Of a DNA stretch of 64,000 bases, positions 11,168 through 59,105 are shown piece by piece. The stretch lies in contig CBDANC010000013.1 in NCBI GenBank assembly GCA_965197425.1, positions 226,243-290,242 of the forward strand, read 5' to 3'. This stretch comes from Bdellovibrionales bacterium. Its GTDB lineage: Bacteria > Bdellovibrionota > Bdellovibrionia > Bdellovibrionales > JAUICD01. The notes below the pieces were generated by a model, which saw nothing but the letters and a program-made list of their open reading frames with translations, was not told where the DNA came from and did no database searches. The position numbers and the translations under genes were made by a program. Every line of letters starts with the position of its first letter. Position 1 is the first letter of the stretch.

Positions 11168-11366
11168 CTTAAACTAAACCCCAAATCAAATGACACTAAA
11201 AAAGCTTATTGTTTCAAAAAAAAGCATTCCATCATTAACTAAAGCAAGACTAAAGGATTAAATTAAATGTTCCGATTTGCCTTACTGTGAATGACGATTG
11301 TACCACATAGGTATAGGCACCAGTCTTGCTGGTATTTGTCAGATAGAAAATCTAAAGGAGATTAGA

Positions 11367-20927: not shown

Positions 20928-21596
20928 TCATTTCTTGCCTTCATGTTCCCTTAACATGCGAGCTATTTCCGTATGACCTTGCTCTGAAGCAATATCAAAA
21001 GCTGTCTCTCCGGGTTTGTTGGTGATAGTCAGGTCAATATCAGGATGAGCAAGAAGCATTGACACTATTTCTGTACGAACAAAAAATGCAGCAGCCATGA
21101 GGGGAGTAGTACCGCCACTTTCCTTGTTCACATCAATGTCAGGGTGAGCCAGAAGCATTTTCACAATCTCCTTATGTCCTTTTTCGGTAGCCAATAACAA
21201 AGGGGGACCTAATGATCTAGCACCGCTAGTGATCGAATACACTAACTGTCTATGGTTGACATCAATAAAACTGTATTCCAGCATCGTTGAAACACTATTT
21301 GTGTGCCCCCATTCAGTAGCATAATTAAGCGTCTTATTAGCAGCCCTTGAGCACATTTTTTTTTGGAAAACATTCATGTGCTCGATTTTATCCATGGCAT
21401 AACGCAATTTTGCATCATCTTTCGTAGAAACACTATCAATAATAGCTGCCTTTTCCGTGCAGAAAGCTCCAGATTCAGATGCCACTCCTCTTTCCCGGTT
21501 ATCTAAAGCTTCTCTGTCAACTCTAGAATCTACACTCTTACAAGAGATAGTAACTAGAGCAATACATGAAAACAAAACAATAGAAATTTTATTCAT
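20928..21596 (-). CDS. ankyrin-repeat lipoprotein
   Basis: ATG at 21596 after an AAGGA SD. Signal MNKISIVLFSCIALVTISC. Two clear ANK repeats (LLAHPDIDVN / LLAHPDIDL). The ORF track extends in-frame to a TTG at 21656 through the C9 tract. Confidence 0.8.
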   Translation of the reverse strand: MNKISIVLFSCIALVTISCKSVDSRVDREALDNRERGVASESGAFCTEKAAIIDSVSTKDDAKLRYAMDKIEHMNVFQKKMCSRAANKTLNYATEWGHTNSVSTMLEYSFIDVNHRQLVYSITSGARSLGPPLLLATEKGHKEIVKMLLAHPDIDVNKESGGTTPLMAAAFFVRTEIVSMLLAHPDIDLTITNKPGETAFDIASEQGHTEIARMLREHEGKK

Positions 21597-21642
21597 AACA
21601 CCATCCTTGAGCTTAGTAACTTCTTTAGAACGTAACACAAAT

Positions 21643-21651
21643 GGGGGGGGG
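21643..21651. repeat. G9 (C9 on the coding strand) homopolymer tract
   Basis: Nine consecutive G, 47-55 nt upstream of the ATG at 21596. It is the only G/C run longer than 6 that I noticed in this AT-rich window. Confidence 0.9.
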
Positions 21652-21690
21652 TACAAGTACTTTGTTAAAAGGGAATAGCAAGATCAGTTA

Positions 21691-21873: not shown

Positions 21874-22683
21874 TTAAAGCTGAAGTGATTTCAACAATTC
21901 TAATGTTTGTTCTAGACCAGAAAGGTCTTTAGGACCACTTAGAGCAGACCGTATTAATCCTCTACCAGAGACACTTAGCTCAATAAACATTGTTTCGTTA
22001 AGTGTTTTACTTCTAAAATACATAGCTCCGTTATTAATAGAATAGTCAGGCATTATTTTCAAAAGATCGATCCTTCTATTTTCTAATTCAGTTTTTTGCT
22101 TTTGTACTTTAATACTACTTCTAACTTCACCCATTTGCCCAAAATGAGCATCACTTATACTTAAACTTATATCCTCTTCTATTATGTCGATTGCTTCTTG
22201 CCTCATGGCGTGAAGACCAAATGGAGTTTCATCCATAATTTTAATTATATCATGGTGTCCATACTTTAATGCAACCGCATTGGCAGTATGAAACTCATCT
22301 GCAGTGTCTTCCATAAAGGAAAATTTTCTTAATAAAGCTCCAACTGCTTTAGCGCGTCCCGATAGACCAGCCCACATCAAAGCAGTGTAACCCCCTTTAT
22401 CCTGGGCATGTATATCTATCCTATTAGAGTTAACCAAAAGATTAACTTGCTCAACATTTCCGCGAAGCACCGCCCAATGAAGCGCATTTCTACCATCTTT
22501 ATCTGTGACTGAAAGATCAATGTAAGAGTTTGCTATCCAACGCTTAAGGGCTTCAGTGTCTTCATTTTTAACCGCATTAATTATATTATTTCTAAAAATT
22601 TTACTAACTAAAGCGGTAATGCAGCCTGAAGCACTTGCTGTATTATAAGATAATAAGATAATTAATAAATACTTGATTTTAAT
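21874..22683 (-). CDS. exported ankyrin-repeat protein, paralog of 22819-23667, probable ATT start
   Basis: The reading frame is open from 22737 to 21874 with no ATG/GTG/TTG before the GTG at 22470. Homology to the neighbour covers the whole frame, including the signal KIKYLLIILLSYNTASASGC. A conserved AGGTGG-N6-ATT sits at 22683. Confidence 0.65.
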   Translation of the reverse strand: MKIKYLLIILLSYNTASASGCITALVSKIFRNNIINAVKNEDTEALKRWIANSYIDLSVTDKDGRNALHWAVLRGNVEQVNLLVNSNRIDIHAQDKGGYTALMWAGLSGRAKAVGALLRKFSFMEDTADEFHTANAVALKYGHHDIIKIMDETPFGLHAMRQEAIDIIEEDISLSISDAHFGQMGEVRSSIKVQKQKTELENRRIDLLKIMPDYSINNGAMYFRSKTLNETMFIELSVSGRGLIRSALSGPKDLSGLEQTLELLKSLQL

Positions 22684-22818: not shown

Positions 22819-23667
22819 TTAATGATTTTTGAAAACTTCTAGCACTTCTTCCATAAGTGCAATGTTTTGAGAGCTACTTAAAGCAGCATTTATTAATTCA
22901 ACATCAGATCTGCTTAATTTCGCTGATACTGTACGGTTAAGGGTCTTGCTTCTAAAATATATCACTCTATCATTATCGATAGTATAGCTAATCACTATCT
23001 TTTCAAATAGTTCCTTAGTTTTAGCTTCCAACATAGCCAGTTCATCTGCTATCTCAGATGCAAGTTCAATTTCATCTACTTGCTCAAAATAGTCTTTTCT
23101 TTTTCGCAGACTTATACCTTCTTCCATTATTGTTATTATTTCTTCAATTGCAACATGGTATCCGAACGGTGTCTCATCCAAAATTTCTCCTACGTCTCGC
23201 CTGTCATATTTTAACGCTAGTACATAGGCAGTATGAAACTCATCTATAACATTTTCATTAAAGATAAACTTTGTTAATAAAACTCCAACAACTTTAGAAT
23301 ATCCAAGCACACTCGCCAATACCAAAGCAGTGTAACCTTCTTTATCCTGGGCATGTATATCTATCCTATTAGAGTTAACCAAAAGATTAGCGTGTTCAGC
23401 ATTCCCTAAACGTGCTGCCCAATTAAGAGCATTTCTACCGTCTTTATCTGTTACTGAAAGATCAATGTAAGAATTTGCTATCCAGCGCTTAAGTGCTTCA
23501 GTATCTTCATTTTTAACTGCATCAATGACACCATTATCTTTACTATTTAAGGCATCAGTGCAATCTGAAGCACCTGCTATACTATAAGATAATAAGATGA
23601 TTAATAAATACTTGATTTTAATTGTACACCACCTATTTGTATGAAATATGCCCTTATAAAAAGACAC
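22819..23667 (-). CDS. exported ankyrin-repeat protein
   Basis: 282-aa ORF from a GTG. ANK repeats (GRNALNWAARLGN, GYTALVLASVLGY) followed by a non-ANK C-terminal half shared with 21874-22683. Alternative AGGTGG-N6-ATT start at 23622. Confidence 0.8.
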   Translation of the reverse strand: MSFYKGIFHTNRWCTIKIKYLLIILLSYSIAGASDCTDALNSKDNGVIDAVKNEDTEALKRWIANSYIDLSVTDKDGRNALNWAARLGNAEHANLLVNSNRIDIHAQDKEGYTALVLASVLGYSKVVGVLLTKFIFNENVIDEFHTAYVLALKYDRRDVGEILDETPFGYHVAIEEIITIMEEGISLRKRKDYFEQVDEIELASEIADELAMLEAKTKELFEKIVISYTIDNDRVIYFRSKTLNRTVSAKLSRSDVELINAALSSSQNIALMEEVLEVFKNH

Positions 23668-34132: not shown

Positions 34133-34396
34133 ATAAGCCTCTCGTCCAGCCAATTTTACAGACTAGGACAATCTATAAACACAAACATAAAAATTGGCAA
34201 GCTTAAAGTAGGTTACACTTTAAAAGTAAAGTAAAAATGACGATAGACTAAAGACATGGTTTGTAGTTGTTGTTTCAAATCAAGACTGTTTTTTGGTATA
34301 GCCTCAGTTTCAATTTGATTTAAAATCGCATCAAACTGTGTTCAAATTATATAGTTGATATTTGTAGGAATTACAAGACTTAAGGGTTATGAGATT

Positions 34397-36121
34397 ATGA
34401 AGCGTTTTTATTCTCTAGGTTTGATATTATTTGCATCTTTGTTTCTTCCAAACTGTGCAATGGATCAAGAATTCGAATATTATGAAAATTATCAGTCTTC
34501 CAGAAGTGATGCAGCTTTCGTACAATCGAAATCCAACATTAGACAATCTCATGTTAATACCCTGAACAGGCTAAGAGAAAGACAAAGACGATTAAGACAA
34601 GCAAGTGTTGGAGGTCGAAGATCCAACACTGTGGTCTACACCACCACCACAACCAATAGGACAGTAGCTAGGCCATTTCGACACCTAGAAGTACAAAACG
34701 AGTCAACTTATATAGCCACCCCAAACCTTATAGGTAGAGGAGCTCCAAATGTCGGCACTAACATTGATAGGAGTAACAATTTGCTAGCTACACTTGGACT
34801 TGAAGTTGCTGAGTACGAAAGAGCAATGAGCCTATCAAATGCCAATGGATATGATAAGTATCAAACAATTAAAGTAAAACTGTTTCCTATCGAAAAAATA
34901 CGTGGTCGTGCCTATGCACCCTATCCTTGGGTTCATGAGCAAAATTTTAGAGATGTAACACTAGAAAACAACAATTCTTTTAAAGTGCTTGAAGTAAATA
35001 TGTCAGATGGAAAGGTCGTTAAGGATTTTGGACTTTTTCAAAAAATAAAGTTTGAATTTGGCATGCCACTAGATCAACTATCAAATCAAAATAAAGCTCT
35101 TTTATACCGAGAACTCTCTTCACCGCACCCAACACTGACGATTGATTTAAGTACACTGGCTAATAGTGAAGAATCCTCAGATCCTGAGTACAAAACAACC
35201 TCTCTAGTTATCAGTCCGAATGAAAAACCTGATGATAATGCTATTGAAGCTGATGGCACAAGAAAAAGTGAGGAAGAGTACATATCAGCAGGGTTTAGTG
35301 TAATTAGATGGGATGGTATCAGAAGATCAAATGGATCAACCCCAAGTGAACAAAGCTATTTTTATAGAGGGGATTTTGAGGTAGCATATGCACACAGATA
35401 CCGAACTGTCAGAGACAGAAGAATTTGGACAATAATAAATCTTATTGATGTAGAGGATTATATTTACTCCGTAGCCTCTAAAGAACTTGGCCAAGCTGTT
35501 ATTAGCACAGAAGGTGCAGAGAACGCAAGAAGGGCACAGGTAATAGCATCTAGAACATACACAGTTCTACAAGCTGATCAAGCCAGAACAGGCTCTATAC
35601 CAAGACTTTGGGATCTACTCCCTACCACAGTTAATCAGGCTTATTTAGGGGTTGAAGCAGAAAAAGGGCCATATAGGGAAGACGTGGAGAGTACTAGGTA
35701 TGAAATCTTGGGTACAAGGAGCAGAGGGGATAAAGCCAGATTATCTTCTGCAAATTACTTTGGATGTACAGAGACAAGGACACTTTATCCACAAGGTTGT
35801 CAACCAAGTGGAAGAGGTTGCATTCCAGAACAGAAACCAAGGATTGTGCCTGGTACTATAAGTTGTGACTATGCTAGAAGGCAATTATCCACAAGGCGTG
35901 ATTTTGAAGGAGAGGTAGTTGCATACGGACATGGTAGGGGTATGTGCCAATTATGTGCATTACATTTAGCCACCACAGGATGGGATGATAGCACTAGGAG
36001 GCCGTCTGAAGATGCAACTTATCCAGAAAATTACAATGATTCTTGGGATCACGAGAATATCTTAAAGTACTTTTATGATGATTCAGATATTTATAAACTT
36101 ACCGATTCAGACTTAGAATAA
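34397..36121 (+). CDS. SpoIID/LytB-domain lipoprotein with long N-terminal extension
   Basis: Signal LILFASLFLPNC. C-terminal half has SpoIID-like blocks (YIYSVASKELG, AQVIASRTYTV, YGHGRGMCQLCA). Confidence 0.72.
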   Translation: MKRFYSLGLILFASLFLPNCAMDQEFEYYENYQSSRSDAAFVQSKSNIRQSHVNTLNRLRERQRRLRQASVGGRRSNTVVYTTTTTNRTVARPFRHLEVQNESTYIATPNLIGRGAPNVGTNIDRSNNLLATLGLEVAEYERAMSLSNANGYDKYQTIKVKLFPIEKIRGRAYAPYPWVHEQNFRDVTLENNNSFKVLEVNMSDGKVVKDFGLFQKIKFEFGMPLDQLSNQNKALLYRELSSPHPTLTIDLSTLANSEESSDPEYKTTSLVISPNEKPDDNAIEADGTRKSEEEYISAGFSVIRWDGIRRSNGSTPSEQSYFYRGDFEVAYAHRYRTVRDRRIWTIINLIDVEDYIYSVASKELGQAVISTEGAENARRAQVIASRTYTVLQADQARTGSIPRLWDLLPTTVNQAYLGVEAEKGPYREDVESTRYEILGTRSRGDKARLSSANYFGCTETRTLYPQGCQPSGRGCIPEQKPRIVPGTISCDYARRQLSTRRDFEGEVVAYGHGRGMCQLCALHLATTGWDDSTRRPSEDATYPENYNDSWDHENILKYFYDDSDIYKLTDSDLE

Positions 36122-36180: not shown

Positions 36181-37692
36181 ATGAAAGTTGTATCTTGTAT
36201 AATTGCAATCCTTATAGCTCTTGTATATTTCAAGTATCATCAAAATGATCCTCCCATTGAGGACGATACTTTGAGTTACTTAGAGAGCTTACCGAGATTA
36301 AAACAAATACATGAGAGAAATATTTTAAAACTGATAAGCAACAAAATAGATCTAGACCCTACAAAAAAAGATTCTGGTTTCCTGGCAGCACAAAAAGATT
36401 TAAAAAAACCAAAATCACAAAAACAATCAAAAACTCAAACTTGGATATTAGAAAAAAAAGTTAAAGAACTGGAGCGCGCAATTAAAACTCTAGATTTAGG
36501 ATTGGAACAATACAAAGCCGTTAGAGTGAAGATTTTTCCTGTTGAAAGAATAAGAAACATTAAAAGTTCCTATACCATAATCTCCAAAGAAGAAATGAAG
36601 TTCATATCAATAGAAAGTATAAACTCACTTGATGTTAATGAAGTTGACTGGACAAATGGGAATATTGTCAAAAAGTACGGCGAGTTTAAAAAAATAGATA
36701 TTCATTTTGGTAACCCAACAAACCTACTATCTCCAGAAAATAAATTAATTTTAATAAAGGACACATTTAGTAGCTTAGGAAAAGAAGAGTTGACACTGGA
36801 TAAACTAATCTCGTCATCAACTTCCATAAGAATAACCCCTGTTATCGCTGAAAGACCAGAGTCCATTGCATATGGATCAAGTAACGATGAATATTACAAG
36901 ACAGGGTTTAGCAGAGTAACTTGGGGCAATAATAAAAAATATTTTTACCGAGGCAGTTTTGATGTAACTTATGCACACAGATACTTATCTGGGATATCTA
37001 GAATATGGACAGTGGTAAACTTAGTTGGCATGTACGATTATATGCATTCGGTTGCATCACAAGAACTTAAACAGGCAAAAGGGAATATCGAAGCGAAGAA
37101 AGCTCAAACCATAGCTGCTAGAACATATGCAGTATTAAAAGCAGGTCAGGCTAGAACAAAAAAGTATAGCCCCAGAATGTGGGATTTATTGCCCACAACA
37201 GCACATCAAATATACTTAGGAGCAAAGGCAGAGATAATACTTTTTGAAGATGCTATTAAAAAAACAAGAAATAAAATTTTGGTTGTGGATACTAAAAAAG
37301 GCTTAAGGCCAGCATTTACAGAATATTTTGGTTGCACGAATCAAAGAACCTTAGATGACCATAATCCACCCAGAATGGATATGCTCATAGAGCAAGAACC
37401 CAGAAATGTCCCTTCTGTTGTAGATTGTGGATATGCTAGAACACAGATCAGAATAAAAAAAGATGTTGTTGGAAAAATTTTGGCATATGGACACGGTAGG
37501 GGTATGTGCCAAAAGTGTGCTATTCATCTAGCTAAAGATGGATGGAATGATAATAACAAAGAACCTACCAAAAAAGACGCTTTCTTGCCTACAGACATAA
37601 GGTCACCCTGGATGCATGACGCAATACTTATGTACTTCTATAACCGCACAAGAATAAAAAACATGCATGAAGTAACTTTGGTTTCAAGATAA
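36181..37692 (+). CDS. SpoIID/LytB-domain protein, tandem paralog
   Basis: 503 aa with an N-terminal TM segment. Same blocks as the upstream gene (YMHSVASQELK, AQTIAARTYAV, YGHGRGMCQKCA). Confidence 0.72.
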   Translation: MKVVSCIIAILIALVYFKYHQNDPPIEDDTLSYLESLPRLKQIHERNILKLISNKIDLDPTKKDSGFLAAQKDLKKPKSQKQSKTQTWILEKKVKELERAIKTLDLGLEQYKAVRVKIFPVERIRNIKSSYTIISKEEMKFISIESINSLDVNEVDWTNGNIVKKYGEFKKIDIHFGNPTNLLSPENKLILIKDTFSSLGKEELTLDKLISSSTSIRITPVIAERPESIAYGSSNDEYYKTGFSRVTWGNNKKYFYRGSFDVTYAHRYLSGISRIWTVVNLVGMYDYMHSVASQELKQAKGNIEAKKAQTIAARTYAVLKAGQARTKKYSPRMWDLLPTTAHQIYLGAKAEIILFEDAIKKTRNKILVVDTKKGLRPAFTEYFGCTNQRTLDDHNPPRMDMLIEQEPRNVPSVVDCGYARTQIRIKKDVVGKILAYGHGRGMCQKCAIHLAKDGWNDNNKEPTKKDAFLPTDIRSPWMHDAILMYFYNRTRIKNMHEVTLVSR

Positions 37693-37761: not shown

Positions 37762-38625
37762 CTAGAGTGTTTTAACGAAAGCTGTTAAATATTGTTTAAA
37801 TTCATCTGCAATTTCAGGGTGCTCTAACCCTAGTTCAATGTTTGCCTTTAAAAGGCCTAATTTATTGCCTGTATCAAACCTACGATTTTTGCACTGTTTT
37901 GCTATCAGTTTTTCTTGTTTTGCTAGAATATTTATAGCACAGGAAAGACCCATTTCCCCACTGTCATTGAAGTTAGGATTTTTTATAATATCCATTATTT
38001 CATTATTAAAAACATATCTTCCTGGTAATATCCATGTACTATCGCTGGTTTTTGGTTTTTCCACTACCTTTTCTACCTTATAGATTGTGCTTTCTATTGG
38101 TGTTACATGTGCTACACCATATTTACTTACTTCCGAGGGTTTTACATCCAGAATTGAAACCGTGTTTTGCTTAAATTTTTCAAATGTTAAAATAAGCTCT
38201 TTCGTTGTATTAGGAGAACCCACCATTATTTCATCTGGCAGTAAGACAGCAAAAGGATCCATACCAACTACTGACCTGGCACAATAAATGGCATGCCCTA
38301 GACCCAGAGGTTTTTTTTGCCTTACTGATATGATATTTGTCTTGTTATAGATGTTTTGCACTGTTTTTAACAGTGTATTCTTGTTTTGTTTTTGCAAGTT
38401 GTATTCTAGCTCAAAGGAAACATCAAATAGGTCTTCTATAGAGTTTTTATGGCGCCCTTGTACAAATATTATTGTTGTAATTCCAGCTTCGAGAGCTTCT
38501 TCAACCACATAGAGTATTGACGGTTTATCTACTATATGCAGCATTTCTTTTGGAATATTTTTACTAGCTGGTAATAGCCTTGTACCAAGGCCTGCAACAG
38601 GAATTACAGCTTTTGTAATCTTCAT
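37762..38625 (-). CDS. galU: UTP--glucose-1-phosphate uridylyltransferase
   Basis: Begins MKITKAVIPVAGLGTRLLPASKNIPKEMLHIVDKP, which is diagnostic. ATG at 38625. Confidence 0.9.
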   Translation of the reverse strand: MKITKAVIPVAGLGTRLLPASKNIPKEMLHIVDKPSILYVVEEALEAGITTIIFVQGRHKNSIEDLFDVSFELEYNLQKQNKNTLLKTVQNIYNKTNIISVRQKKPLGLGHAIYCARSVVGMDPFAVLLPDEIMVGSPNTTKELILTFEKFKQNTVSILDVKPSEVSKYGVAHVTPIESTIYKVEKVVEKPKTSDSTWILPGRYVFNNEIMDIIKNPNFNDSGEMGLSCAINILAKQEKLIAKQCKNRRFDTGNKLGLLKANIELGLEHPEIADEFKQYLTAFVKTL

Positions 38626-38703
38626 ACAAGTTGTAGTTAGGACTATAAAAAAGTTCAAGTCAAGCAAAGAAAGTTACAGGTTTGTGGGTAACTAAAAATT
38701 CAC

Positions 38704-38732
38704 TTGAAAGAATAAGGATGGTTTACTATAAA
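38704..38732 (+). promoter_or_regulatory. sigma-70-like promoter for tRNA-Arg
   Basis: TTGAAA (38704-38709), 17-nt spacer, TATAAA (38727-38732). It ends 10 nt before the mature tRNA 5' end. Confidence 0.5.
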
Positions 38733-38742
38733 TTAGTTTTTT

Positions 38743-38819
38743 GGTTCGGTAGCTCAATTGGATAGAGCATCTGCCTTCTAAGCAGAGGGTTGCAGGTTCG
38801 AGTCCTGCCCGAATCACCA
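38743..38819 (+). tRNA. tRNA-Arg (anticodon UCU), CCA encoded
   Basis: Hand-folded cloverleaf. Acceptor ggttcgg/ccgaatc (one G-U pair), D stem gctc/gagc, anticodon stem tctgc/gcaga with loop cTTCTaa, T arm gcagg-ttcgagt-cctgc, discriminator A, then CCA. Confidence 0.9.
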
Positions 38820-38969
38820 CTTTCAAAATAAAATGATACAACCCTACCTTCTAACAAGAGGGTTACATGCTTCTAAGTCCTGCCCGAATCACCACTTTCA
38901 AAATAAAATGATACAACCCTACCTTCTAACAAGAGGGTTACATGCTTCTAAGTCCTAGCCGAATCACCA
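38820..38969 (+). repeat. two tandem 75-bp units, each a degenerate copy of the 3' ~60 nt of tRNA-Arg
   Basis: Units are 38820-38894 and 38895-38969 and differ at 1 position. Each ends gtcct(g/a)gccgaatcacca and retains ccttctaa and agagggtt, but the T stem is destroyed (acatgcttctaagtcctgc). Confidence 0.85.
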
Positions 38970-39103
38970 CTTCCATCAATCAAACTTATGATGACTTTGA
39001 ATTTCAAATTTACGATTACAGATCAAATGACAAAACTTAAAATACTCTAAAAGAATGTGGAAAAAAGATAACAGAACAAAATTATTTAGAGGAGAACATT
39101 TAG

Positions 39104-40114
39104 TTATCTGTTAATGAGTCTAACACCATTTTTTAATTCATTATATCTGTCAATATCACCTTGAGATAACCCATTTACCGCTTCATAAGAGGGTAATACA
39201 GCCTTCATTATACTTGCATCATCACCTGTACTGTGCGTAATACCTAGAACATGCCCTAACTCATGTGCCATAATACCAACAAAATGTGCAGCACGATGCC
39301 TACTGCCACCACCTGCTCTAAAGCTTTCCAAACTTCTCATAAATGCCTGTTGAACAGGACTGTTTGGAACAGAACAGTTAACAAAGCAATCAAAAAAGAA
39401 TGTGATGCCAGAAGACTCATCACCACTTTCCCTAAAGTCATTTATTACAATGTCACCCTCAATAAACCTACCAACATACGTATACATGGTACACGCAAAA
39501 CCAGATGCCTGATTCCTGTCTCCTATATTGTTATTTTTGTTCCAATAAATAGTAGAGTAGCCATCACCAGAAGCTGATCCCTCGCTAGTAGAAGTAGTTG
39601 GGGGTTCAATTACATTAAAAATATCCTTGCCTATTCCATTTTCCCAAACTGCAATTGCATCCTCTATCAGCTCCTTATACCTGTCACCAACCTCAAGTCT
39701 AGTTGGATCTGAACTATAAATACTATCATCTATCACCAAATCTATAGGAACATCATCACCAGCCCCTGCATTGGATCTATAGGCTAACATAGGATTGTAC
39801 TGCGAAACACCAATGCCCTTACCCCTAGCCGATGAATCATAATTTTCTTGACCAGGCATACCTTGTTTCATATTGCTAGACTTATCTGGAATTGGAATAG
39901 GATCATCTGTGCGAATTATTGTTGTATGGGACGAACTAATACAAGCAGGATCTAGATCAAAAGGGTTAAAAGATGTATAAGACCTGCCACTATGCTTTGA
40001 AGAACCAAGAGAAGGACTAGAAGAATTGTCTATATGACCTGCACAATTCTGATAACCTAAAATCAAAAATACACCCATCAAGGCAAAGGCAAAAACAATC
40101 AACTTAGAACGCAT
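39104..40114 (-). CDS. secreted zinc metalloprotease (metzincin)
   Basis: 336 aa. Signal FAFALMGVFLILGYQNC. HELGHVLGITHS (HExxHxxGxxH) followed by an SIM Met-turn candidate. Confidence 0.8.
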   Translation of the reverse strand: MRSKLIVFAFALMGVFLILGYQNCAGHIDNSSSPSLGSSKHSGRSYTSFNPFDLDPACISSSHTTIIRTDDPIPIPDKSSNMKQGMPGQENYDSSARGKGIGVSQYNPMLAYRSNAGAGDDVPIDLVIDDSIYSSDPTRLEVGDRYKELIEDAIAVWENGIGKDIFNVIEPPTTSTSEGSASGDGYSTIYWNKNNNIGDRNQASGFACTMYTYVGRFIEGDIVINDFRESGDESSGITFFFDCFVNCSVPNSPVQQAFMRSLESFRAGGGSRHRAAHFVGIMAHELGHVLGITHSTGDDASIMKAVLPSYEAVNGLSQGDIDRYNELKNGVRLINR

Positions 40115-40460
40115 TATAAGACACCTCCATTTTGCAAATATTTATCCAACAAGACCAACCCAAAATACAACCCCCCAACCTACAAAGATTAACAGAATCT
40201 AAAGCACAAGAAAATCCAAAACATCTTATAAGAAGAAAACAATACCTTTAGTCTAAAAAATTATTCCCACAATCTTTAAAAATTTTGAACTCACCATTAT
40301 TCACAACAAATACCGCTTTTAAAAGTTTAATAATCGCACAAGTCACAGATAACATTGTCAAAAAATTAAAATGGTTTCATAAATTATAAATATAAACAAT
40401 GTAACAACAAAGTTTTTACTTGAATTCTGTTCAAGTTTGTTACAAGTTTACTGCAAATAT

Positions 40461-41162
40461 ATGACAAATACGGTCACAAACAATACAATCGCAGCTTTGT
40501 TATATTTGCTGTTTTCAAGTCCAGTGTTTGCCAAAACAAACTGTGTTAACTCACTTGAGCCTTACTCTGCACACGACATACAAAATATAGACTTAACGTC
40601 ACAATTTAAAACCGCAATCTTGGATCAAGACACAAACAAGGTAAGAGCCTTGTTACTAAATGGCGCTGATCCAAATAAGAAAATTGGTGATATAGAAACG
40701 CCACTCTTTCATGCTGTGTGGAGCAAAAATATAGGGCTTGTAAAAACTCTATTACAATCAGATGAGATTGATGTTAATGCAACAACTAATTGGATACGCG
40801 ATAAAAAGACAACTGCACTGATGCTGGCCTCTGAGAAAGGACTTTTGAAAATAGCCAGTTCGCTAATAGAGCACCCAAAAATTAAGCTGAATTTTCAAAA
40901 TCACAAAGGGCATACAGCATTAATGATAGCTATTATAAAACGTAATGTATCTGTTGTGGAATTTCTTATAAACATTAAGGGCATTAATCTACTTATAAGA
41001 GACAATGAAGACAGAGACACACTACAAATAGCACTGAACCTTAACCATACCACCAGCAATGATATTATCAAAATCATCTTAGACAGCAAGGCATATAACA
41101 GGTTGAGTCCGCAATACCGCAACAAATACGACAATATACTCAATAAAAAAAAGTTCTATTAA
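40461..41162 (+). CDS. exported ankyrin-repeat protein
   Basis: ATG at 40461. Signal IAALLYLLFSSPVFA. ANK repeats (ETPLFHAVWSKN, TTALMLASEKG, HTALMIAIIKRN). Confidence 0.82.
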   Translation: MTNTVTNNTIAALLYLLFSSPVFAKTNCVNSLEPYSAHDIQNIDLTSQFKTAILDQDTNKVRALLLNGADPNKKIGDIETPLFHAVWSKNIGLVKTLLQSDEIDVNATTNWIRDKKTTALMLASEKGLLKIASSLIEHPKIKLNFQNHKGHTALMIAIIKRNVSVVEFLINIKGINLLIRDNEDRDTLQIALNLNHTTSNDIIKIILDSKAYNRLSPQYRNKYDNILNKKKFY

Positions 41163-44939: not shown

Positions 44940-45887
44940 TCAAAGGATTGGGTTTGACTCTGTATGATTAAGGTTTTGAAATTTTACTTCGTTCTGACCC
45001 AATTTGCTTAAAGCTAATTGTACATAATCTCGATTTATATCGTATCCAATATATTTTCGGCCCTTACCTTGTGCTGACAGTGCAGTAGTCCCACTTCCAA
45101 TAAATGGGTCTAACACTATATCTCCATGAAAGGAGTAGAGTTCAATAAGACGAGAAGGAAGTTCTAAAGGAAAAGGTGCAGGGTGACCAGCTTTCTTAGC
45201 ACTTGTAGTATTAAATTTCCAGATACTCTTTGTGTATTCTAAGAATTGATCTCTATCGATTTCTTGTTTTTGAGAGGAAGTTCTGTTATAAATCCCCTTA
45301 CAAAAAACCAAAATGTATTCATGTACATCCCTAAGTACAGGATTACTAGCTGATCGCCAACTACCCCAAGCACATGAAACACCTGCACTTGCCCCTTTAT
45401 CCCATATGATTTCACCTCTCATAAGAAAACCACAATTTAAGGCTATTTCGATAACATGTGAGTGAAGAGGTATGTAAGGAGTTCTACCTATGTTTGCAAT
45501 GTTGATACATGCCCTACCACCTACTACCAACACTCTGTAAACTTCATTCAAAACATCAAATAGCAAGCTTTTATACTCGTCAAAGGATAAATCACTATCA
45601 TAATCTTTGCCCACATTGTAAGGAGGAGAGGTCACCATTAAGTGAACAGATTTATCTGGCAAATGCTTCATATTTCTACTATCATGGCAGTAAATCACAT
45701 CAACTTTATCCGGGCAGTTCCAATCGTAATTAACTTCACTTTGTGTTGCTTTTTTCTTCTCATACATTTTACGACCATAGAACCTAGAAGAATCATGACC
45801 TTCCCTTGTGGGTGTGCCAAAAGATTGGGTTTCGCTTTTATTTGTACTTTTTTTGCGTTCTATTTTTCTTCCCATAGTTCTATCCAT
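44940..45887 (-). CDS. DNA methyltransferase, beta class (motif IV before motif I), SPPY
   Basis: MVTSPPYNVGKDY (motif IV) at about aa 85 and VLDPFIGSGTTALSA (motif I) at about aa 260. This is the N6_N4_Mtase architecture. Confidence 0.85.
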   Translation of the reverse strand: MDRTMGRKIERKKSTNKSETQSFGTPTREGHDSSRFYGRKMYEKKKATQSEVNYDWNCPDKVDVIYCHDSRNMKHLPDKSVHLMVTSPPYNVGKDYDSDLSFDEYKSLLFDVLNEVYRVLVVGGRACINIANIGRTPYIPLHSHVIEIALNCGFLMRGEIIWDKGASAGVSCAWGSWRSASNPVLRDVHEYILVFCKGIYNRTSSQKQEIDRDQFLEYTKSIWKFNTTSAKKAGHPAPFPLELPSRLIELYSFHGDIVLDPFIGSGTTALSAQGKGRKYIGYDINRDYVQLALSKLGQNEVKFQNLNHTESNPIL

Positions 45888-45931
45888 TTCTTATACAAAA
45901 ACTCTTGCTTATTTAATTTTTTATCTCTCAT

Positions 45932-46375
45932 CTAATTAATCGATAGATATAATGTGTCAGAGTGGCTTTTCAACTGCTTTAATGCTTTGCTTTGTATTTC
46001 TATACCCCTGGCATTAGTGCCACGTTTTGGAACTTTTAAATATTTTTCTTCCCCCAAAATTTTCAATATTTTCTTCTGAATATCTACAGGAATAAAATAA
46101 AATCCACCCGCAATTGTATTCCATTGAATTTGAACTAACAATAAATGACAAGCTGGAACATATTCTTCAACAAATATTTTTGTTTTATCCCAATCAACAG
46201 TCCAAGCGATCTTTACTCCAGCATCACTAGAATCAGTTTTAGTTTTGATTGAAATTGGCTGATCCTTCACATAAATATCTGTTTCATGTTCAGTTGTATC
46301 TGGAAAAGTAACAGCTTTGCTTCCAAAAGTGTGCATTAAAAGAGCTGCCAAAACTCTCTCCCTTGCAACACCCAC
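45932..46375 (-). CDS. putative small type II restriction endonuclease
   Basis: 147 aa, 44 bp upstream of the methyltransferase on the same strand. PD-(D/E)xK-like spacing ETDIYVKDQPISIKTK. No other recognised motif. GTG start. Confidence 0.4.
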   Translation of the reverse strand: MGVARERVLAALLMHTFGSKAVTFPDTTEHETDIYVKDQPISIKTKTDSSDAGVKIAWTVDWDKTKIFVEEYVPACHLLLVQIQWNTIAGGFYFIPVDIQKKILKILGEEKYLKVPKRGTNARGIEIQSKALKQLKSHSDTLYLSIN

Positions 46376-53507: not shown

Positions 53508-56500
53508 CTAACTTCCAGATGATTCTACACACTGACCAGTATTGGTATCTTCATAGATATGCGTACGGTAATAGTTCTGTTGGTCATCTATTTCCCCCAG
53601 ATAGCCATACTCACCTTCCATGTTGCCTATACTGTTGCCCTCACTGGATACGATAGACACAATATCTTCTAAATGGCTGTAGTCTTTTGAATAAAAGTAG
53701 TTTCTTAATTTAATTCTATAGATAGCATTGCTACACACATAGTGATCTTGATCTTGTATTCTAATTTGTGATTTATACAGTCCATCCGCTAGATCTCTAT
53801 CTACATAGATCTCAACAGTTATCTCACCATTACCATCAGCTATTGGATTTCCTAATAAGTTATCTCCAACTCCATCTGCATTGTCATCTATTGGTTCACA
53901 TTCTTCATAGTTGGTGACATCATTTGTACCATCGTCATTAGTATCACAGTCCACTTCCACTAATTCAACCACCTTAGCTACCTCAGATTCAGAAATTCTC
54001 TTGTTGAAATAGTTGCCACTGCTAATGGTTTCTTCTGGATCGACATAACCAACAATACCATCAAATAAAATTTCTATTGTGTGATCTTTTGGTACTATGT
54101 ACTCTATATTACTTCCTGATCTTGAAATAATACTATCATCACTGTCATCTTTAAAAGAAATGGCTGCGGTTGGAATGCCAATACATCCCACTTTATCACC
54201 AACATCATCTATAACTGTAAACACTCCACTACTGCCAGCATCGCATGCATCTTCTTCTAGATGAAAGATTATATGAGTTGCTACTGTTGGCAGATAACCA
54301 TCCACCAAATTATCTGCCCTATATGCGTCTGGAGCATCAGATTTAAAGACATAGTTTTCTAGTTCCACTACATGATCACCTGTGATCGTTTTAGTACAAG
54401 TTTCAAGAATTGGATTACCGTTCTCATCTAATAACGGATTACCATCCTCATCACGTGCTATGCATTCATATTCAATCTCAGAAGTAGCACTTAATCCATT
54501 ATCAGGAGGTTCTATTATGATATAAGACCCATTTGCATCAACACCCACAGTAATTTTATCTATGGTATATTCTGTTCCCATTTTATTTCTTCCGGTAGTA
54601 CAATCTGTGTAGTCCTGTGCTGAATCACTGTCACATTCATCTATTTGTCTAATATCAACCATATCAAACACTCTTTGTAAGCTCAGTGTTTCCCAACCTT
54701 GCTCTACTATATAAGCAATTTCTCCGTTAAATCTAATTGTTAAAACAGCATCTCTAGGTACAACAAATGCACGGCCAGCTTCCCTGCTAATATTCTGTCC
54801 ATCACTAGTTGTAAATTCAAATGTAGGAGTTGGAAGTTTTATACATTCAGCATTTTGACCATCTTTTCTAAGCTGGAAGTAACCCAATTCACCTCTAGCA
54901 CATGGGGTATTACGTGTACCAACATAAAATGCAGAGGTTCTAGTAGCTCTCTGTAGATAATCACTTCTATTATCACTAACTGAAACCGCCTGAGCATCTG
55001 AATCTCTAACATAACCCTCTATCTCTACAGAGTAATCTCCATCTAGATAACCACCAACAGGAGGCTCAATTTTAATACGATGATTACCTGAAACAACCTC
55101 AACACTTAACTGTTCTAGACCTATTGAATCACCAATTAAATTACTACCTCCATTAACACTAGAAATCTCAAGCATATCCAACAAATGATTATTAGATAAT
55201 ATCTCAAAATCTCCATCATCATCTATGTGAGAAACTTTAGAGTCAAAGTCTACTGTAATAACAACATCATCAGCACCATTAGACGAACTATAAGAAACAT
55301 CAACCACAGAAAGCTCTATACACTCAGCATCCTGACCATCTCTTTTAAGCTGGAAGTAACCTGATTCACCTCTAGCACACGGAGTATTACGTGTACCAAC
55401 ATAAAACGCAGAAGTCTTCGTAGCTCTTTGTAGATAATCACCTCTATTATCACTAACTGAAACTGCCTGAACATCTAAATCTCTAACATAACCCTCTATC
55501 TCTACAGAGTAATCTCCATCTAGATAACCACCAACAGGAGGCTCAATTTTAATACGATGATTACCTGAAACAACCTCAACACTCAACTGCTCTAGACCTA
55601 TTGAATCACCAATTAAATTACTACCACCATTAACACCAGAAATCTCAAGCATATCCAACAAATGATTATTAGAAACTTGCTCAAAATCTCCATTATCATC
55701 TAAGTAAGAAACCGTAGAATCAAAATCTACCGTAATAACAACATCATCAGCACCATTAGACGAACTATAAGAAACATCAACCACAGAAAGCTCTATACAC
55801 CCAGCATCCTGACCATCTCTTCTAAGTTGGAAGTAACCCGCTTCACCCCTGGCACATGGAGTATTACGTGTACCCACATAAAATGCAGAAGTCCTCGTAG
55901 CTTTCTGTAGATAATCATCTCTATTATCACTAACTGAAACCGCCTGAGCATCTGAATCTCTAACATAACCCTCTATCGATACAGCGTAATCCCCATCTAG
56001 ATAACCACCAACAGGAGGCTCAATTTTAATACGATGACTACCTGAAACAACCTCCACACTCAACTGCTCTAGACCTATTGAATCACCAATTAAATTACCA
56101 CCACCATTAACACGCGAAATCTCAAGCATCTCCAACAAATGATTGTTAGATAAACCCTCAAAATCTCCATCACCTTCTATATGAGCAACTCTGGAATCAA
56201 AACCTACCGTAATAACAACATCATCAGCACCATTAAACGAATCATAAGAAACATCAACCGCAGAAAGCTTTATACACTCAGCATCTTGACCATCTTTTCT
56301 AAGCTGGAAGTAACCCGATTCACCCCTAGTACAAGGAGTTTCTGGATTCTCCACATAAAATACAGAATGCTTCTTGATTAGAGATAAATATCTAGTCCTA
56401 CTGCTATCTCCAGTACCTTCACTATTAAGAATGGAGTTTGCGTCCGAAAGCTTAGCATAATTTTCTATCGAAATCTCATAGTCATTCTCATCATAACCCC

Positions 56501-59105
56501 CGCTTGGCGGCATGACCCTAATGTAAGTATTACCACCAGAAGTTAAACCAAAGCTAAGGTTAGCAACCCCTATTGTATCCCCAACAAGATTACCTCCACC
56601 AACAGGTCCAATTTTCACCATATCCAAGAGACGATGAATGGAAAGTTCTTCCCATATAAACGTTCCTCCACCAGTAGTATTTCTTCCAAAATATGCAATT
56701 TCAGAATCAAATACTATGTCAATTACAACATCGTCTGAACCATCAGAATCATCACTTGTTACACCATCACTGGTGTATTGAAAGGAAACCTCAGAAAGCT
56801 CGATGCATCTAAGACTATTACCACTAGCATCTTCAAGCTGGAACCAACCCTCTTCACCTCTGGTACAAGGGGTCTCTGGATTACCCACATAAAATACAGA
56901 ATACTTCCTAGATACAGATAAATATCTAGTCCTATTCACGCTGTTGGCAATCAAATTGCCTTCTTCCAACCTAGCATAATTCTCTACTGAAACTTCATAG
57001 TTACCTTCCTCGTAACCTCCGCTTGGGGGCATGATCCTAATATAATGATTATCATCATCAGTTAAACCAAAGCTAAGGTTAGCAACCCCTATCGTATTTC
57101 CAACAAGATTACCTCCACCAAGTGGTCTTACCACAAGCATATCTAATAGACGATGTATCGAAAGATCTTCTAAAACAAAATCATTACTACCACCACTAAC
57201 TCCTCCAAGATACAAGACTTCAGAATCAAACACTACGTCAATTACAACATCACTTGAACCATCTGAAGAACTTGATGTGGTACCATCATTTGTGTAGCTA
57301 AAAGAAACAACGGAGAGTGATATACACCTGATCTTTCTGCCATCATCATCCACAAGCTGAAACCAACCCCGCTCACCCCTAGTACAAGGGGTCTCTGGAT
57401 CGCCCACATAAAATACAGAATGCTTCTTGATTAGAGATAAATATCTAGTCCTACTGCTATTACTACTGTTAGTAATAAGCCTTTCATCTGACAACTTAGC
57501 ATAATTTTCTACCGAAACTTCATAGTTACCTTCATCATAACCCTCGCCTGGCGGCATGATCCTAATATAATGGTTACCACCAGAAGTTAAACCAAAGCTA
57601 AGGTCATCAACTCCTATTATATCCCCAACAAGATTACTTCCACCAAGTGGTCTTACCACAAGCATATCTAATAGACGATGTATCGAAAGATCTTCTAAAA
57701 CAAAACCACTTCCAGATCTTCCAAAATATGCAATTTCAGAATCAAACACCATGTCAATTACAACATCGTTTGAACCATCAGAATAATCGCTTGCTTCACC
57801 ATCATTTATGTACTTAAAGGAAACTCTAGGGAGTTTTATGCAACTAAGTTTATTTCCACTTTCACCTTTAAGTTGAAACCAACCCCGCTCTCCATTAGTA
57901 CACGGTGTTATAGGTTCTCCTGCAAAAAATACAGTTTCCTCTTGTACTTCACTTAAATACTTATCCTTATTACTACTCGCAAAAATTAAAGGTACATCTT
58001 CTGCTTTTGCGTAATTTTTCGAAGTGATCTTATAACTACCTGCTGGATAAACACCATTCAGTAATTGAGGAGGTTTGACAGTTATATGTGACTTGCCGCC
58101 CTCATAATCAACTTCAAAATCATCGACCAAAATTAACTGACCTACAAGATTTCGATTATCTTCATTAGTTATCTCTATCATATTATAGAGATCAATGCTT
58201 TTAGATAGTGCAGAACCTCTTCCATCTTCATCGAGATAAGATACGTGAGCATCAAAGTTAATATGGATATAAACGTCTTCCTTCGGCTCATTTGATGTGC
58301 CAGAAATAGATGTGCCACTGCTATCTTTAAAATCGAACTCTACTTCAGGAAGTTTAATACAGTTGTATTCATCTTTGCCCCCACTACTTTCCTTTTCTAG
58401 TAGAAAATAGCCACTTAAACCCGAATTACAAACTTGTTCATGACCTGATAAGTCATCACAGGCAGATAGACCAAGAGAAGCAAGTATCAACATTGCTCCA
58501 CTAAGCACGGGTTTTATTTTGTCACCTAAAACACGAGAAACAGGCCTTGCAAATTTTAACCCTCTGACAGGAGTTAGTAAAAATAAAGACTGTGCAACTG
58601 AAAACTTAGTCCCCTCTCTATTACCTGGGTTATTTACAGCATAAGTATCATCTCGATTGTTTAAATCTAGATTGCCAAAAGCAGATTCACCAAAAGATTT
58701 ATATTTCTGTTCTTCAACTTTTTTAATCCCCAGCCTATTACAGTAGAGATTATTTAACGATTCATCCGAAGAACATAACGAAGACACAAATTTAAGGATG
58801 GAATCTTCGCACTGTTTAGTGTCTATTAACAGATTACCATCTTCATTTGTTTGTTGTAACTTATCAAAAATTTCTTGTGAAGAAAGCTTGTCACCATCAA
58901 TTGAATAGGCAACTTCTGATAGAATATCACATCTTGCTACCGCATTTGCTATGAGGTCCAGGTCATGCTCACTTGGCTGGGTGTAACTTTCTAAATTACC
59001 TGAAGCTGGATTCAACACCGGCGGAGTGTCCGTGCTTTGAGCATGTACATAACCTGTGAGTATAAAAACTAATAAAAAAGCTACGTAGCTTAAAAGCCCT
59101 TTCAA
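53508..59105 (-). CDS. giant exported repeat protein (1865 aa, 9 modules)
   Basis: TTG start after a GGGGGA SD. Signal MKGLLSYVAFLLVFILTGYVHA. About 170-aa Cys-containing N-domain. Internal lipobox LASLGLSAC at aa 208-216. Then nine Cys-bracketed modules: aa 226-402, 403-574, 575-747, 748-925, 926-1084, 1085-1243, 1244-1402, 1403-1621 and 1622-1865. Confidence 0.85.
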   Translation of the reverse strand: MKGLLSYVAFLLVFILTGYVHAQSTDTPPVLNPASGNLESYTQPSEHDLDLIANAVARCDILSEVAYSIDGDKLSSQEIFDKLQQTNEDGNLLIDTKQCEDSILKFVSSLCSSDESLNNLYCNRLGIKKVEEQKYKSFGESAFGNLDLNNRDDTYAVNNPGNREGTKFSVAQSLFLLTPVRGLKFARPVSRVLGDKIKPVLSGAMLILASLGLSACDDLSGHEQVCNSGLSGYFLLEKESSGGKDEYNCIKLPEVEFDFKDSSGTSISGTSNEPKEDVYIHINFDAHVSYLDEDGRGSALSKSIDLYNMIEITNEDNRNLVGQLILVDDFEVDYEGGKSHITVKPPQLLNGVYPAGSYKITSKNYAKAEDVPLIFASSNKDKYLSEVQEETVFFAGEPITPCTNGERGWFQLKGESGNKLSCIKLPRVSFKYINDGEASDYSDGSNDVVIDMVFDSEIAYFGRSGSGFVLEDLSIHRLLDMLVVRPLGGSNLVGDIIGVDDLSFGLTSGGNHYIRIMPPGEGYDEGNYEVSVENYAKLSDERLITNSSNSSRTRYLSLIKKHSVFYVGDPETPCTRGERGWFQLVDDDGRKIRCISLSVVSFSYTNDGTTSSSSDGSSDVVIDVVFDSEVLYLGGVSGGSNDFVLEDLSIHRLLDMLVVRPLGGGNLVGNTIGVANLSFGLTDDDNHYIRIMPPSGGYEEGNYEVSVENYARLEEGNLIANSVNRTRYLSVSRKYSVFYVGNPETPCTRGEEGWFQLEDASGNSLRCIELSEVSFQYTSDGVTSDDSDGSDDVVIDIVFDSEIAYFGRNTTGGGTFIWEELSIHRLLDMVKIGPVGGGNLVGDTIGVANLSFGLTSGGNTYIRVMPPSGGYDENDYEISIENYAKLSDANSILNSEGTGDSSRTRYLSLIKKHSVFYVENPETPCTRGESGYFQLRKDGQDAECIKLSAVDVSYDSFNGADDVVITVGFDSRVAHIEGDGDFEGLSNNHLLEMLEISRVNGGGNLIGDSIGLEQLSVEVVSGSHRIKIEPPVGGYLDGDYAVSIEGYVRDSDAQAVSVSDNRDDYLQKATRTSAFYVGTRNTPCARGEAGYFQLRRDGQDAGCIELSVVDVSYSSSNGADDVVITVDFDSTVSYLDDNGDFEQVSNNHLLDMLEISGVNGGSNLIGDSIGLEQLSVEVVSGNHRIKIEPPVGGYLDGDYSVEIEGYVRDLDVQAVSVSDNRGDYLQRATKTSAFYVGTRNTPCARGESGYFQLKRDGQDAECIELSVVDVSYSSSNGADDVVITVDFDSKVSHIDDDGDFEILSNNHLLDMLEISSVNGGSNLIGDSIGLEQLSVEVVSGNHRIKIEPPVGGYLDGDYSVEIEGYVRDSDAQAVSVSDNRSDYLQRATRTSAFYVGTRNTPCARGELGYFQLRKDGQNAECIKLPTPTFEFTTSDGQNISREAGRAFVVPRDAVLTIRFNGEIAYIVEQGWETLSLQRVFDMVDIRQIDECDSDSAQDYTDCTTGRNKMGTEYTIDKITVGVDANGSYIIIEPPDNGLSATSEIEYECIARDEDGNPLLDENGNPILETCTKTITGDHVVELENYVFKSDAPDAYRADNLVDGYLPTVATHIIFHLEEDACDAGSSGVFTVIDDVGDKVGCIGIPTAAISFKDDSDDSIISRSGSNIEYIVPKDHTIEILFDGIVGYVDPEETISSGNYFNKRISESEVAKVVELVEVDCDTNDDGTNDVTNYEECEPIDDNADGVGDNLLGNPIADGNGEITVEIYVDRDLADGLYKSQIRIQDQDHYVCSNAIYRIKLRNYFYSKDYSHLEDIVSIVSSEGNSIGNMEGEYGYLGEIDDQQNYYRTHIYEDTNTGQCVESSGS
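54900..56330 (-). repeat. three near-identical 477-bp in-frame tandem repeats inside the giant gene
   Basis: Encodes modules aa 926-1084, 1085-1243 and 1244-1402, each 159 aa. Most positions are identical, for example VVSG(S/N)HRIKIEPPVGGYLDGDY in all three. Confidence 0.85.

Follow-up and report, generated by a model that had tools for sequence, protein, structure and literature searches.

Where direct repeats of a tRNA's 3' end lie behind the gene itself, they are routinely read as the mark left by an island that an integrase has inserted. Partial tRNA copies in tandem are also found in organelle genomes, where tandem duplication with random loss, and control-region repeats with tRNA pseudogenes, leave them behind, and in E. 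coli the sequence directly 3' of a tRNA, 3'ETS-leuZ, is a functional external transcribed spacer that acts as a sponge for small RNAs (sRNAs). Partial tRNA genes of prokaryotes usually stem from integration (PMC9897764), and the Islander paper (PMC4383910) gives as the signature of an island an intact or regenerated tRNA target together with a directly repeated, displaced 3' fragment, the two marking the island ends. Here we describe a locus that carries the same signature without a mobile element. It lies in a stretch of 64,000 nt from an uncultivated Bdellovibrionales bacterium (contig CBDANC010000013.1, positions 226,243 to 290,242; GC content 36%), which we call the window, and consists of a tRNA-Arg(UCU) gene with two tandem 75-bp units derived from its own 3' part immediately behind it. 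With a probability of roughly 60%, we read this array as a tRNA-derived minisatellite that arose by partial duplication of the tRNA and its trailer, with no mobile element in its present dynamics and no required function.

The only tRNA that ARAGORN finds in the window is tRNA-Arg(tct) (38743-38819, plus strand), a functional gene that scores 72.3 bits against the Rfam tRNA family and encodes its CCA. Two 75-bp units follow directly on that CCA (38820-38894 and 38895-38969), and according to Tandem Repeats Finder the array, which it places at 38774-38972, has a period of 75, amounts to 2.7 copies and shows 92% matches, the fractional copy being the 3' part of the tRNA itself; the initial annotation of a tRNA with two tandem partial copies thus stands. 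Each unit opens with an AT-rich spacer of 16-17 nt, in keeping with the 17 nt first estimated, and continues with about 58 nt homologous to the tRNA. In unit 1 the spacer CTTTCAAAATAAAATGA (38820-38836, plus strand) is at the same time the 3' trailer of the tRNA, and the tRNA-like part (38837-38894, plus strand) is homologous to tRNA nucleotides 18/19-77. Unit 2 (38895-38969, plus strand) has the same composition and differs from unit 1 at two adjacent bases rather than at the one position given initially: GC has become AG at 38957-38958 (unit positions 63-64), turning GTCCTGCC into GTCCTAGC.

Local alignment of a unit to the tRNA spans tRNA positions 28-77 with a score of 58, against 12.1 +/- 1.9 (maximum 21) in 500 shuffles, and a profile built from the units aligns with positions 18-77, so that the homology runs, as had been proposed, from the D-loop (GATAGAGC in the tRNA, GATACAAC in the units) to the CCA. 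The 18-mer GTCCTGCCCGAATCACCA occurs three times in the window, always at the tRNA or the units, where 0.01 occurrences would be expected, and the tRNA 3' end and unit 1 have in common an exact identity block of 19 nt, AGTCCTGCCCGAATCACCA. The T-arm, GCAGGTTCGAGTCCTGC in the tRNA, has been rewritten to ACATGCTTCTAAGTCCTGC. To call the T stem broken overstates this change, as three of its five pairs can still form in the window units; the loop has been enlarged from 7 to 9 nt and rewritten to CTTCTAAGT. This derived loop holds an exact copy of the anticodon-loop octamer CTTCTAAG (the 8-mer plus one base), and the motif is thus present twice per unit. The 5' acceptor and D strands are missing from the units, which neither ARAGORN nor Rfam calls as tRNAs, so that the check with tRNA finders suggested initially returns the one functional gene but none of the anticipated pseudo-hits. 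Apart from the match of the tRNA gene itself there is no Rfam hit, and the folding of the units is not unusual (z-scores of -0.6 to -0.9).

The same unit family was found in related genomes. With GalU and the metzincin encoded downstream as handles, five related loci (L001, L081, L082, L083 and L085) were recovered. L085 comes from a sister strain or species (GalU 96% identical at the amino acid level; fourfold-site identity about 0.88-0.91) and L082 from a sister species (M10 protein 71%, EamA protein 84-88% identical; fourfold-site identity 0.46-0.69); L081 is about as distant from the window as L082, L001 serves as the outgroup, and the L083 contig breaks off within the tRNA. A separate contig from the same sample as L081, L084, carries the metzincin-EamA pair. 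Further relatives were not obtained: among genome contigs scanned with GalU, L001 was the sole useful one, the other 79 loci being Desulfovibrionaceae at about 40% identity; a scan of JGI metagenomes for a 28-mer of the unit and for a clade-specific promoter-plus-tRNA pattern gave no match; and exact look-up of the window's GalU and M10 proteins, of P0001 and of P0124 gave no contig.

In all three genomes the array fills the same place, bounded by tRNA-Arg(UCU) on one side and by the M10 stop codon on the other, with 2 full units of 75 bp in the window, 7 of 86 bp in L085 and 4 of 85/86 bp in L082; the Tandem Repeats Finder values are 7.6 copies at period 86 for L085 and 5.0 copies at period 85 for L082. 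Aligned with the tRNAs, the tRNA-like parts of the three unit types give 61 columns, 45 of them identical throughout, 9 derived and shared and 7 variable. The nine shared derived columns comprise the change of GATAGAGC to GATACAAC, a G to C substitution after the anticodon loop, and the replacement of GCA-GG-TTCGAG by nCATGCTTCTAAG. Since these changes are common to all three unit types, they show that the units go back to a single ancestral pseudo-copy and not to independent events, and this copy is older than the split of the array-bearing lineages. The spacers agree with this picture in their 3' half, AATAAAnnGATACAAC, which is identical at 14 of 16 positions between the window and L082, and the window spacer equals that of L085 minus 11 nt.

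Within each array the units are 98-100% identical, with 0-2 differences each; units of different lineages are set apart by 5-6 differences in the tRNA-like part and by spacer indels of 10-11 nt. The few internal variants are one unit with an extra A and a G to A change in L082, one G/T variant and a C to T change private to three adjacent units in L085, and the dinucleotide change of the window, where the last copy is the most deviant. Homogeneous arrays, differences between lineages and a private variant in adjacent units are together what unequal exchange would be expected to leave. These comparisons of sequence thus establish that the units have a common ancestor, that their number varies and that they are homogeneous within the arrays. 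The end of the array in L082 is also informative: the sequence after the fourth unit is a degenerate spacer, identical at 26 of 32 positions (none of 1000 shuffles aligned as well), which stops at AATACAA, immediately ahead of the stop codon of the metzincin gene. Such an ending, in which native flank takes over from an incomplete unit, fits a tandem duplication and not an attL/attR pair, where the intact gene should be followed by sequence of the element and the fragment by unrelated host DNA. A weaker trace of the same kind, CAAAATAAA, is present in L085 (p ~0.04).

A Pfam scan of every open reading frame (ORF) of at least 90 aa, 49 in the whole window, revealed no integrase, recombinase or transposase domain, in line with the initial remark that no integrase is nearby, and none was found among the genes called on L082 or L085. 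In scans by exact matching, the tRNA 3' 19-mer and a 28-mer and a 38-mer of the unit have no match among IMG/VR viral contigs, and the unit 28-mer has none in the JGI metagenomes. A distal att copy, proposed as a further search, was sought with the 18-mer (up to 3 mismatches) and with an nhmmer profile of the unit, and none was found in the window, in L001, in L081-L084 or elsewhere in L082. GC content is flat downstream of the array, with no compositional anomaly, and only 17-27 nt intervene between copies in the three arrays, leaving no kb-scale foreign segment. Of the five defining features of an att pair that were tested, four are lacking, namely an integrase, a kb-scale insert, unrelated flanks (the L082 tail resembles the spacer, with a marginal signal in L085 and no significant one in the window) and a matching attP; an intact tRNA with a direct-orientation 3' fragment that includes the exact 19-nt block is present. 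The attributes of a minisatellite are all found here: head-to-tail copies, copy-number variation at orthologous loci and homogeneity within arrays. As the same unit recurs at the same place in 4 and 7 copies in relatives without mobile genes, we prefer a variable number tandem repeat (VNTR) to an integration scar, and the lack of an integrase, of intervening DNA and of a viral match, together with the retained synteny and copy-number steps of one unit, argues for a simple duplication that was later amplified.

The following course of events could have produced the array. In an ancestor of the clade, the 3' two-thirds of tRNA-Arg(UCU), from the D-loop to the CCA, would have been duplicated in tandem together with about 17-30 nt of native trailer, probably by illegitimate or slipped recombination. 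Lacking the 5' acceptor and D-stem strand, the downstream copy was a pseudogene, and it may then have acquired its fixed changes (GATAGAGC to GATACAAC, AAGCAG to AAC(A)AG and GCAGGTTCGAG to nCATGCTTCTAAG). The resulting unit of 75-86 bp would subsequently have expanded and contracted through unequal homologous recombination or replication slippage, with units exchanging among themselves and with the identical 19-nt 3' end of the tRNA. Concerted evolution of this kind could account for arrays of 2, 7 and 4 copies whose members are nearly identical.

The tRNA itself seems to take part in this exchange. Its T-stem pair 49:65 is C:G in L085 and in the outgroup L001, and G:C in the window, L081 and L082, a distribution that is incongruent with protein distances; between the window tRNA (38743-38819) and that of L085 (2526-2602), the pair shows a full compensatory swap despite a fourfold-site divergence of about 10%. 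The unit column equivalent to tRNA position 65 is C in the window and L082 and G in L085, in each case the base of the resident tRNA, and columns 49 and 65 read C...G in L085, G...C in L082 and A...C in the window. Agreement between units and resident tRNA thus extends to all three lineages for position 65 and to two of them for position 49, and in L085, where the tRNA pair has been swapped from G:C to C:G, seven of seven units carry the matching bases. The agreement at column 65 fits sequence exchange across the shared 3' block, from which we infer that the array can feed changes into an essential tRNA. The locus is, in this respect, a small natural experiment in the concerted evolution of an essential gene with adjacent pseudo-copies.

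The tRNA, identical in sequence in L081 and L082, is preceded by a putative promoter, TTGAAA-17 nt-TATAAA, read from the sequence at 38704-38732 (plus strand) and ending 10 nt before the gene. This block is nearly invariant in an alignment of six related loci; a consensus scanner did not flag it because its -10 hexamer ends in A. No terminator-like site was found in the window from the tRNA up to the stop codon of the metzincin gene, nor in the scanned region of L082, and with no terminator between tRNA and array, the array is probably transcribed along with the tRNA, as its 3' trailer, and cut away as the tRNA matures. The arrays themselves hold no consensus sites for promoter or terminator function. 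Upstream, the galU-tRNA intergenic region (38626-38742) is strongly conserved in L001, L081, L082, L083 and L085 and includes an invariant AGTCAAG motif besides the promoter block; some 20-25 nt are deleted from the middle of this spacer in L081 and L001.

Several observations weigh against the minisatellite reading. In accessible data, the array is known from three lineages only, those of the window, L085 and L082. A partial unit at the array end is strong only in L082 and is not significant in the window tail, and a microhomology between D-loop and native flank that might mark the duplication junction (GATAGAGC / GATACAAC / AATACAAA) is visually suggestive, is not significant, and is kept only as an inference. 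A further difficulty is the conservation of the units. Over the short distance to L085, 5 of 61 columns differ, with one substitution and an 11-nt indel in the spacer, at a fourfold-site divergence of about 10%, which is compatible with neutrality (P = 0.42). Over the longer distance, 55 of 61 columns are identical between the window and L082 and 56 of 61 between L085 and L082, at fourfold-site identities of 0.69-0.70 (P ~1e-4), and 36 of 42 and 38 of 42, respectively, remain identical when the 19-nt block shared with the tRNA is left out (P = 0.011 and 0.0015). The three pairs therefore show 5, 6 and 5 differences at neutral identities of 0.90, 0.69 and 0.70, without growth with divergence. 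The differing columns coincide between comparisons (hypergeometric P = 0.003), which is partly explained because two of them are positions of difference between the resident tRNAs. If the units exchange sequence with the invariant tRNA, their tRNA-identical columns are anchored, but the derived pseudo-T-loop should be erased as well, and 13 of 13 units retain it. Columns 49 and 65, G...C in L082 and C...G in L085, also look compensatory, with the A...C of the window as a counter-example.

For comparison, the window and L082 are 0.69-0.92 identical per 100 nt in the adjacent intergenic DNA and galU, and the units are conserved about as well as the promoter-bearing intergenic region. A recent local recombination between the lineages of the window and L082 would be one cause of high unit identity, but the sliding-window identity of 0.69-0.92 reveals no clear tract. 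RNAalifold, run on the unit alignment of the three lineages, gives one invariant 5-bp hairpin and zero covarying pairs. A neutral relic does not explain the high conservation over the longer distance, although we regard a selected function as an unlikely cause.

If selection were nevertheless responsible, the units would be functional modules, as mimics or decoys of tRNA-Arg(UCU), as a sponge, as a source of RNAs resembling 3' tRNA-derived fragments (3'-tRFs), as DNA repeats bound by a protein, or as mini-ORFs. Besides conservation above fourfold sites and the restriction of differences to a few columns, this explanation could invoke the freezing of all nine derived columns in three lineages, the octamer copied from the anticodon loop into the derived T-loop, the bases at columns 49 and 65 in L082 and L085, the likely co-transcription with the tRNA and the small ORF behind a GAGG in every unit. 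It is hard to reconcile with the genomes of L081 and L001, which keep the tRNA and lack the array, showing it to be dispensable, with a copy number that is free to be 2, 4 or 7, and with change at a nearly neutral rate over short range that includes 1- and 11-nt indels. There is no thermodynamically unusual or covarying structure and no Rfam match, the length of the mini-ORF varies with no sign of selection at the protein level, the window units break the 49:65 pair and one of them has the further GC to AG change in its 3' block, and the coincidence of columns is in part that of two tRNA positions. On balance we consider functional modules unlikely. The more specific proposal, that the array consists of selected tRNA-Arg(UCU) mimics within the tRNA's own 3' trailer, seems to us distinctly improbable. 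It takes up that each unit has the D-loop GAUA, CUUCUAA twice (the second time through the derived changes that took the place of the T-loop) and the exact 3' terminus ...GAAUCACCA, and that it follows the resident 49:65 pair. Were it true, the mimics could titrate a factor that binds the anticodon loop, such as an anticodon nuclease or toxin, a modification enzyme or arginyl-tRNA synthetase (ArgRS), or could instead yield 3'-tRF-like small RNAs in an ankyrin-rich, host-associated bacterium, and the array would be a sequence reservoir driving change in the T-stem of an essential tRNA. Another explanation, that mis-assembly around the tRNA produced the repeats or their number, is highly improbable. 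The window contig is metagenome-assembled, short-read assemblers can collapse tandem repeats, and the long-read contigs of L082 and L085 show more copies (4 and 7 against 2), so that the count of two could be under-assembled; yet three assemblies, made from different samples, yielded the family independently, each with lineage-specific sequence, and the window units, told apart by a private dinucleotide, are anchored in unique flanks. Such an artefact could change the copy number but not create the feature.

The remaining alternative concerns the origin of the founding copy, which may have been an att scar: a tyrosine-integrase element would have inserted in the T-loop/3' end of the tRNA and later been deleted, its attP comprising a degenerate tRNA-like arm and the exact 19-nt 3' block, and the attR-like fragment left a few tens of nt behind the tRNA would then have been amplified. 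The arrangement corresponds to the Islander signature in tRNA genes (tDNA; PMC4383910), with its intact tRNA, direct 3' fragment and exact 19-nt block AGTCCTGCCCGAATCACCA, and most partial tRNA genes in prokaryotes come from integration (PMC9897764). The 3' side of the tRNA is a synteny breakpoint, with unrelated DNA right after the gene in L001 and L081, and the clustered changes of the T-arm are easier to obtain as a foreign attP than by point mutation. Williams reportedly noted in 2002 that 19 nt is a size typical of T-loop-type att cores. An element carrying CATGCTTCTAAGTCCTG or the tRNA 3' 19-mer in its attP would speak for this origin. Beyond the missing recombination genes and the missing exact matches in IMG/VR and the JGI metagenomes, the homology of the L082 spacer to the flank at the array end would require attP identity to continue beyond the CCA for about 30 nt, the genes farther downstream belong to a syntenic core, and a change in copy number at an 86-bp period between close relatives requires no integrase. 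We therefore think an att scar rather unlikely, and, if the first copy did arise in this way, it would be an ancient event unrelated to the present structure. The initial annotation had offered scars of serial integration or a duplicated attR; of this, the tandem duplication has held up (2, 7 and 4 copies), and the link to mobile DNA has not, given the missing integrase, the flat GC content, the lack of an IMG/VR match and the tail of L082. Comparison of related genomes at the tRNA, intended to reveal an island present or absent, shows variation in unit number and no insert. Relatives carry essentially the same relics between conserved flanks, with copy number alone varying, a situation that had itself been named beforehand as pointing away from mobile DNA.

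In L081 an identical tRNA is followed immediately by unrelated DNA (1-333) with no unit, in which an ORF with a signal peptide starts and which, having no counterpart in the window or the other loci, is a lineage-specific replacement; L001 has the tRNA without a following unit, and in L084 the nearest 130 nt to the metzincin stop hold no unit. The 3' side of the tRNA is thus a rearrangement point in the clade. In the window, the tail that leads from the array to the stop codon of the metzincin gene, which is convergent (38970-39103, plus strand), is AT-rich, with its last ~30 nt common to L085 and its first ~100 nt specific to the window. Those ~100 nt, including the 75 nt at 38970-39044, are missing from the sister strain and have no significant similarity to the unit; a third, decayed unit of unit length at 38970-39045 was considered and rejected, as global and local alignments were no better than those of shuffles.

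Each unit of the window, L082 and L085 also contains a GAGG followed after 5 nt by an ATG that was made by the derived T-arm change. This ATG opens an ORF of 10-14 codons (MLLSP[A/G/S]RIT...), read as MLLSPARITI* in L082 and MLLSPGRITT* in L085; the window versions lie at 38862-38908 (MLLSPARITTFKIK*) and at 38937-39035, the latter with 32 codons. The GC to AG difference between the window units changes one codon of this ORF, GCC for alanine to AGC for serine, which is probably a coincidence.

On the upstream side, galU (37762-38625, minus strand), encoding a UTP-glucose-1-phosphate uridylyltransferase (PF00483 homologues), diverges from the tRNA and adjoins it in L001, L081, L082, L083 and L085, which made it the anchor gene for syntenic loci. 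Two tandem, divergent SpoIID-domain proteins (34355-36121 and 36181-37692; 588 and 503 aa) are encoded beside galU in all relatives. On the downstream side, convergent with the tRNA, stands a gene for a secreted M10-type metzincin (39104-40114, minus strand; PF00413), orthologues of which lie beside the array in L082 and L085, making it syntenic and not island cargo. It is followed in the window by genes for an ankyrin protein, an EamA/DMT transporter, a 107-aa protein, an adenylosuccinate-lyase-like protein and a coiled-coil protein, and, farther on, by a restriction-modification pair and the housekeeping genes ychF, pth, rplY and prs. Behind the array of L082, the genes for the metzincin, EamA, the 107-aa protein and the lyase keep this order, the ankyrin gene alone being missing. 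The downstream genes, suspected at first of being island remnants, are thus ordinary syntenic neighbours, with housekeeping genes beyond them.

The ankyrin gene (40437-41162) is missing at the orthologous position in L082 and L084; in L085 a gene on the opposite strand at that position may be its counterpart. If so, the ankyrin gene would be a lineage-specific insertion a few kb from the tRNA. Seven ankyrin-repeat proteins are encoded in the 64 kb (1409-2695, 9869-11167, 11298-13004, 20928-21656, 21874-22470, 22819-23667 and 40437-41162), which, together with a size of only 1.6 Mb for the complete relative, suggests a eukaryote-associated lifestyle, either intracellular or epibiotic. The restriction-modification pair (44940-46375), an N6_N4 DNA methylase with a ThaI-like endonuclease, lies between the coiled-coil gene and ychF; at its position L082 has a gene of the 23S-rRNA-IVP family, and there the ychF-pth-rplY-prs block is inverted relative to the window. 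Two adjacent giant ORFs on the minus strand (53508-59105 and 59384-63823; 1865 and 1479 aa) have no Pfam match at E <= 0.001.

The array combines two known kinds of sequence, tRNA gene fragments and bacterial minisatellites. No described precedent for a bacterial minisatellite made of tRNA 3' fragments was found in the literature searched, which is not proof that none exists. Island finders that rely on tRNA fragments could miscall loci of this type. Should the excess conservation prove functional, for which the present evidence is weak, the array would represent a new kind of tRNA mimic encoded in a tRNA trailer. The closest parallel for such a role would be 3'ETS-leuZ of E. coli, by analogy only: in both cases the sequence lies directly 3' of a tRNA, and ours is probably co-transcribed and conserved above neutral expectation, but it is repetitive and derived from the tRNA and has neither a partner sRNA nor a defined structure. 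The pseudo-tRNA duplications of organelles resemble the array in general terms, as slipped-strand or unequal duplications that include part of a tRNA gene, although here a bacterial chromosome is concerned, the duplicated part is the 3' two-thirds of one tRNA with its trailer, and the copies persist across species with concerted evolution.

With the attL/attR sites of islands and prophages in tRNA genes, the locus shares an intact tRNA followed by a direct 3' copy, an exact block of the last 19 nt including the CCA, and a tRNA 3' side that is a synteny breakpoint in more distant relatives. It departs from them in having 17-27 nt and no island between copies, no integrase in 64 kb and head-to-tail copies of fixed period; in L082, moreover, the flank after the intact tRNA is homologous to that after the last fragment, and relatives differ in how many units they have and not in whether an element is there. 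The likeness to bacterial intergenic minisatellites or VNTRs goes further, with head-to-tail units of 75-86 bp, 2 against 7 copies at about 10% neutral divergence, homogeneity within arrays and divergence between lineages, and edge copies that are the most diverged. What sets this array apart from them is that its unit comes from an essential tRNA gene next to it and is still in register with that gene, whose last 19 nt it shares exactly, so that the tRNA is itself the first, partial repeat and is able to exchange sequence with the others.

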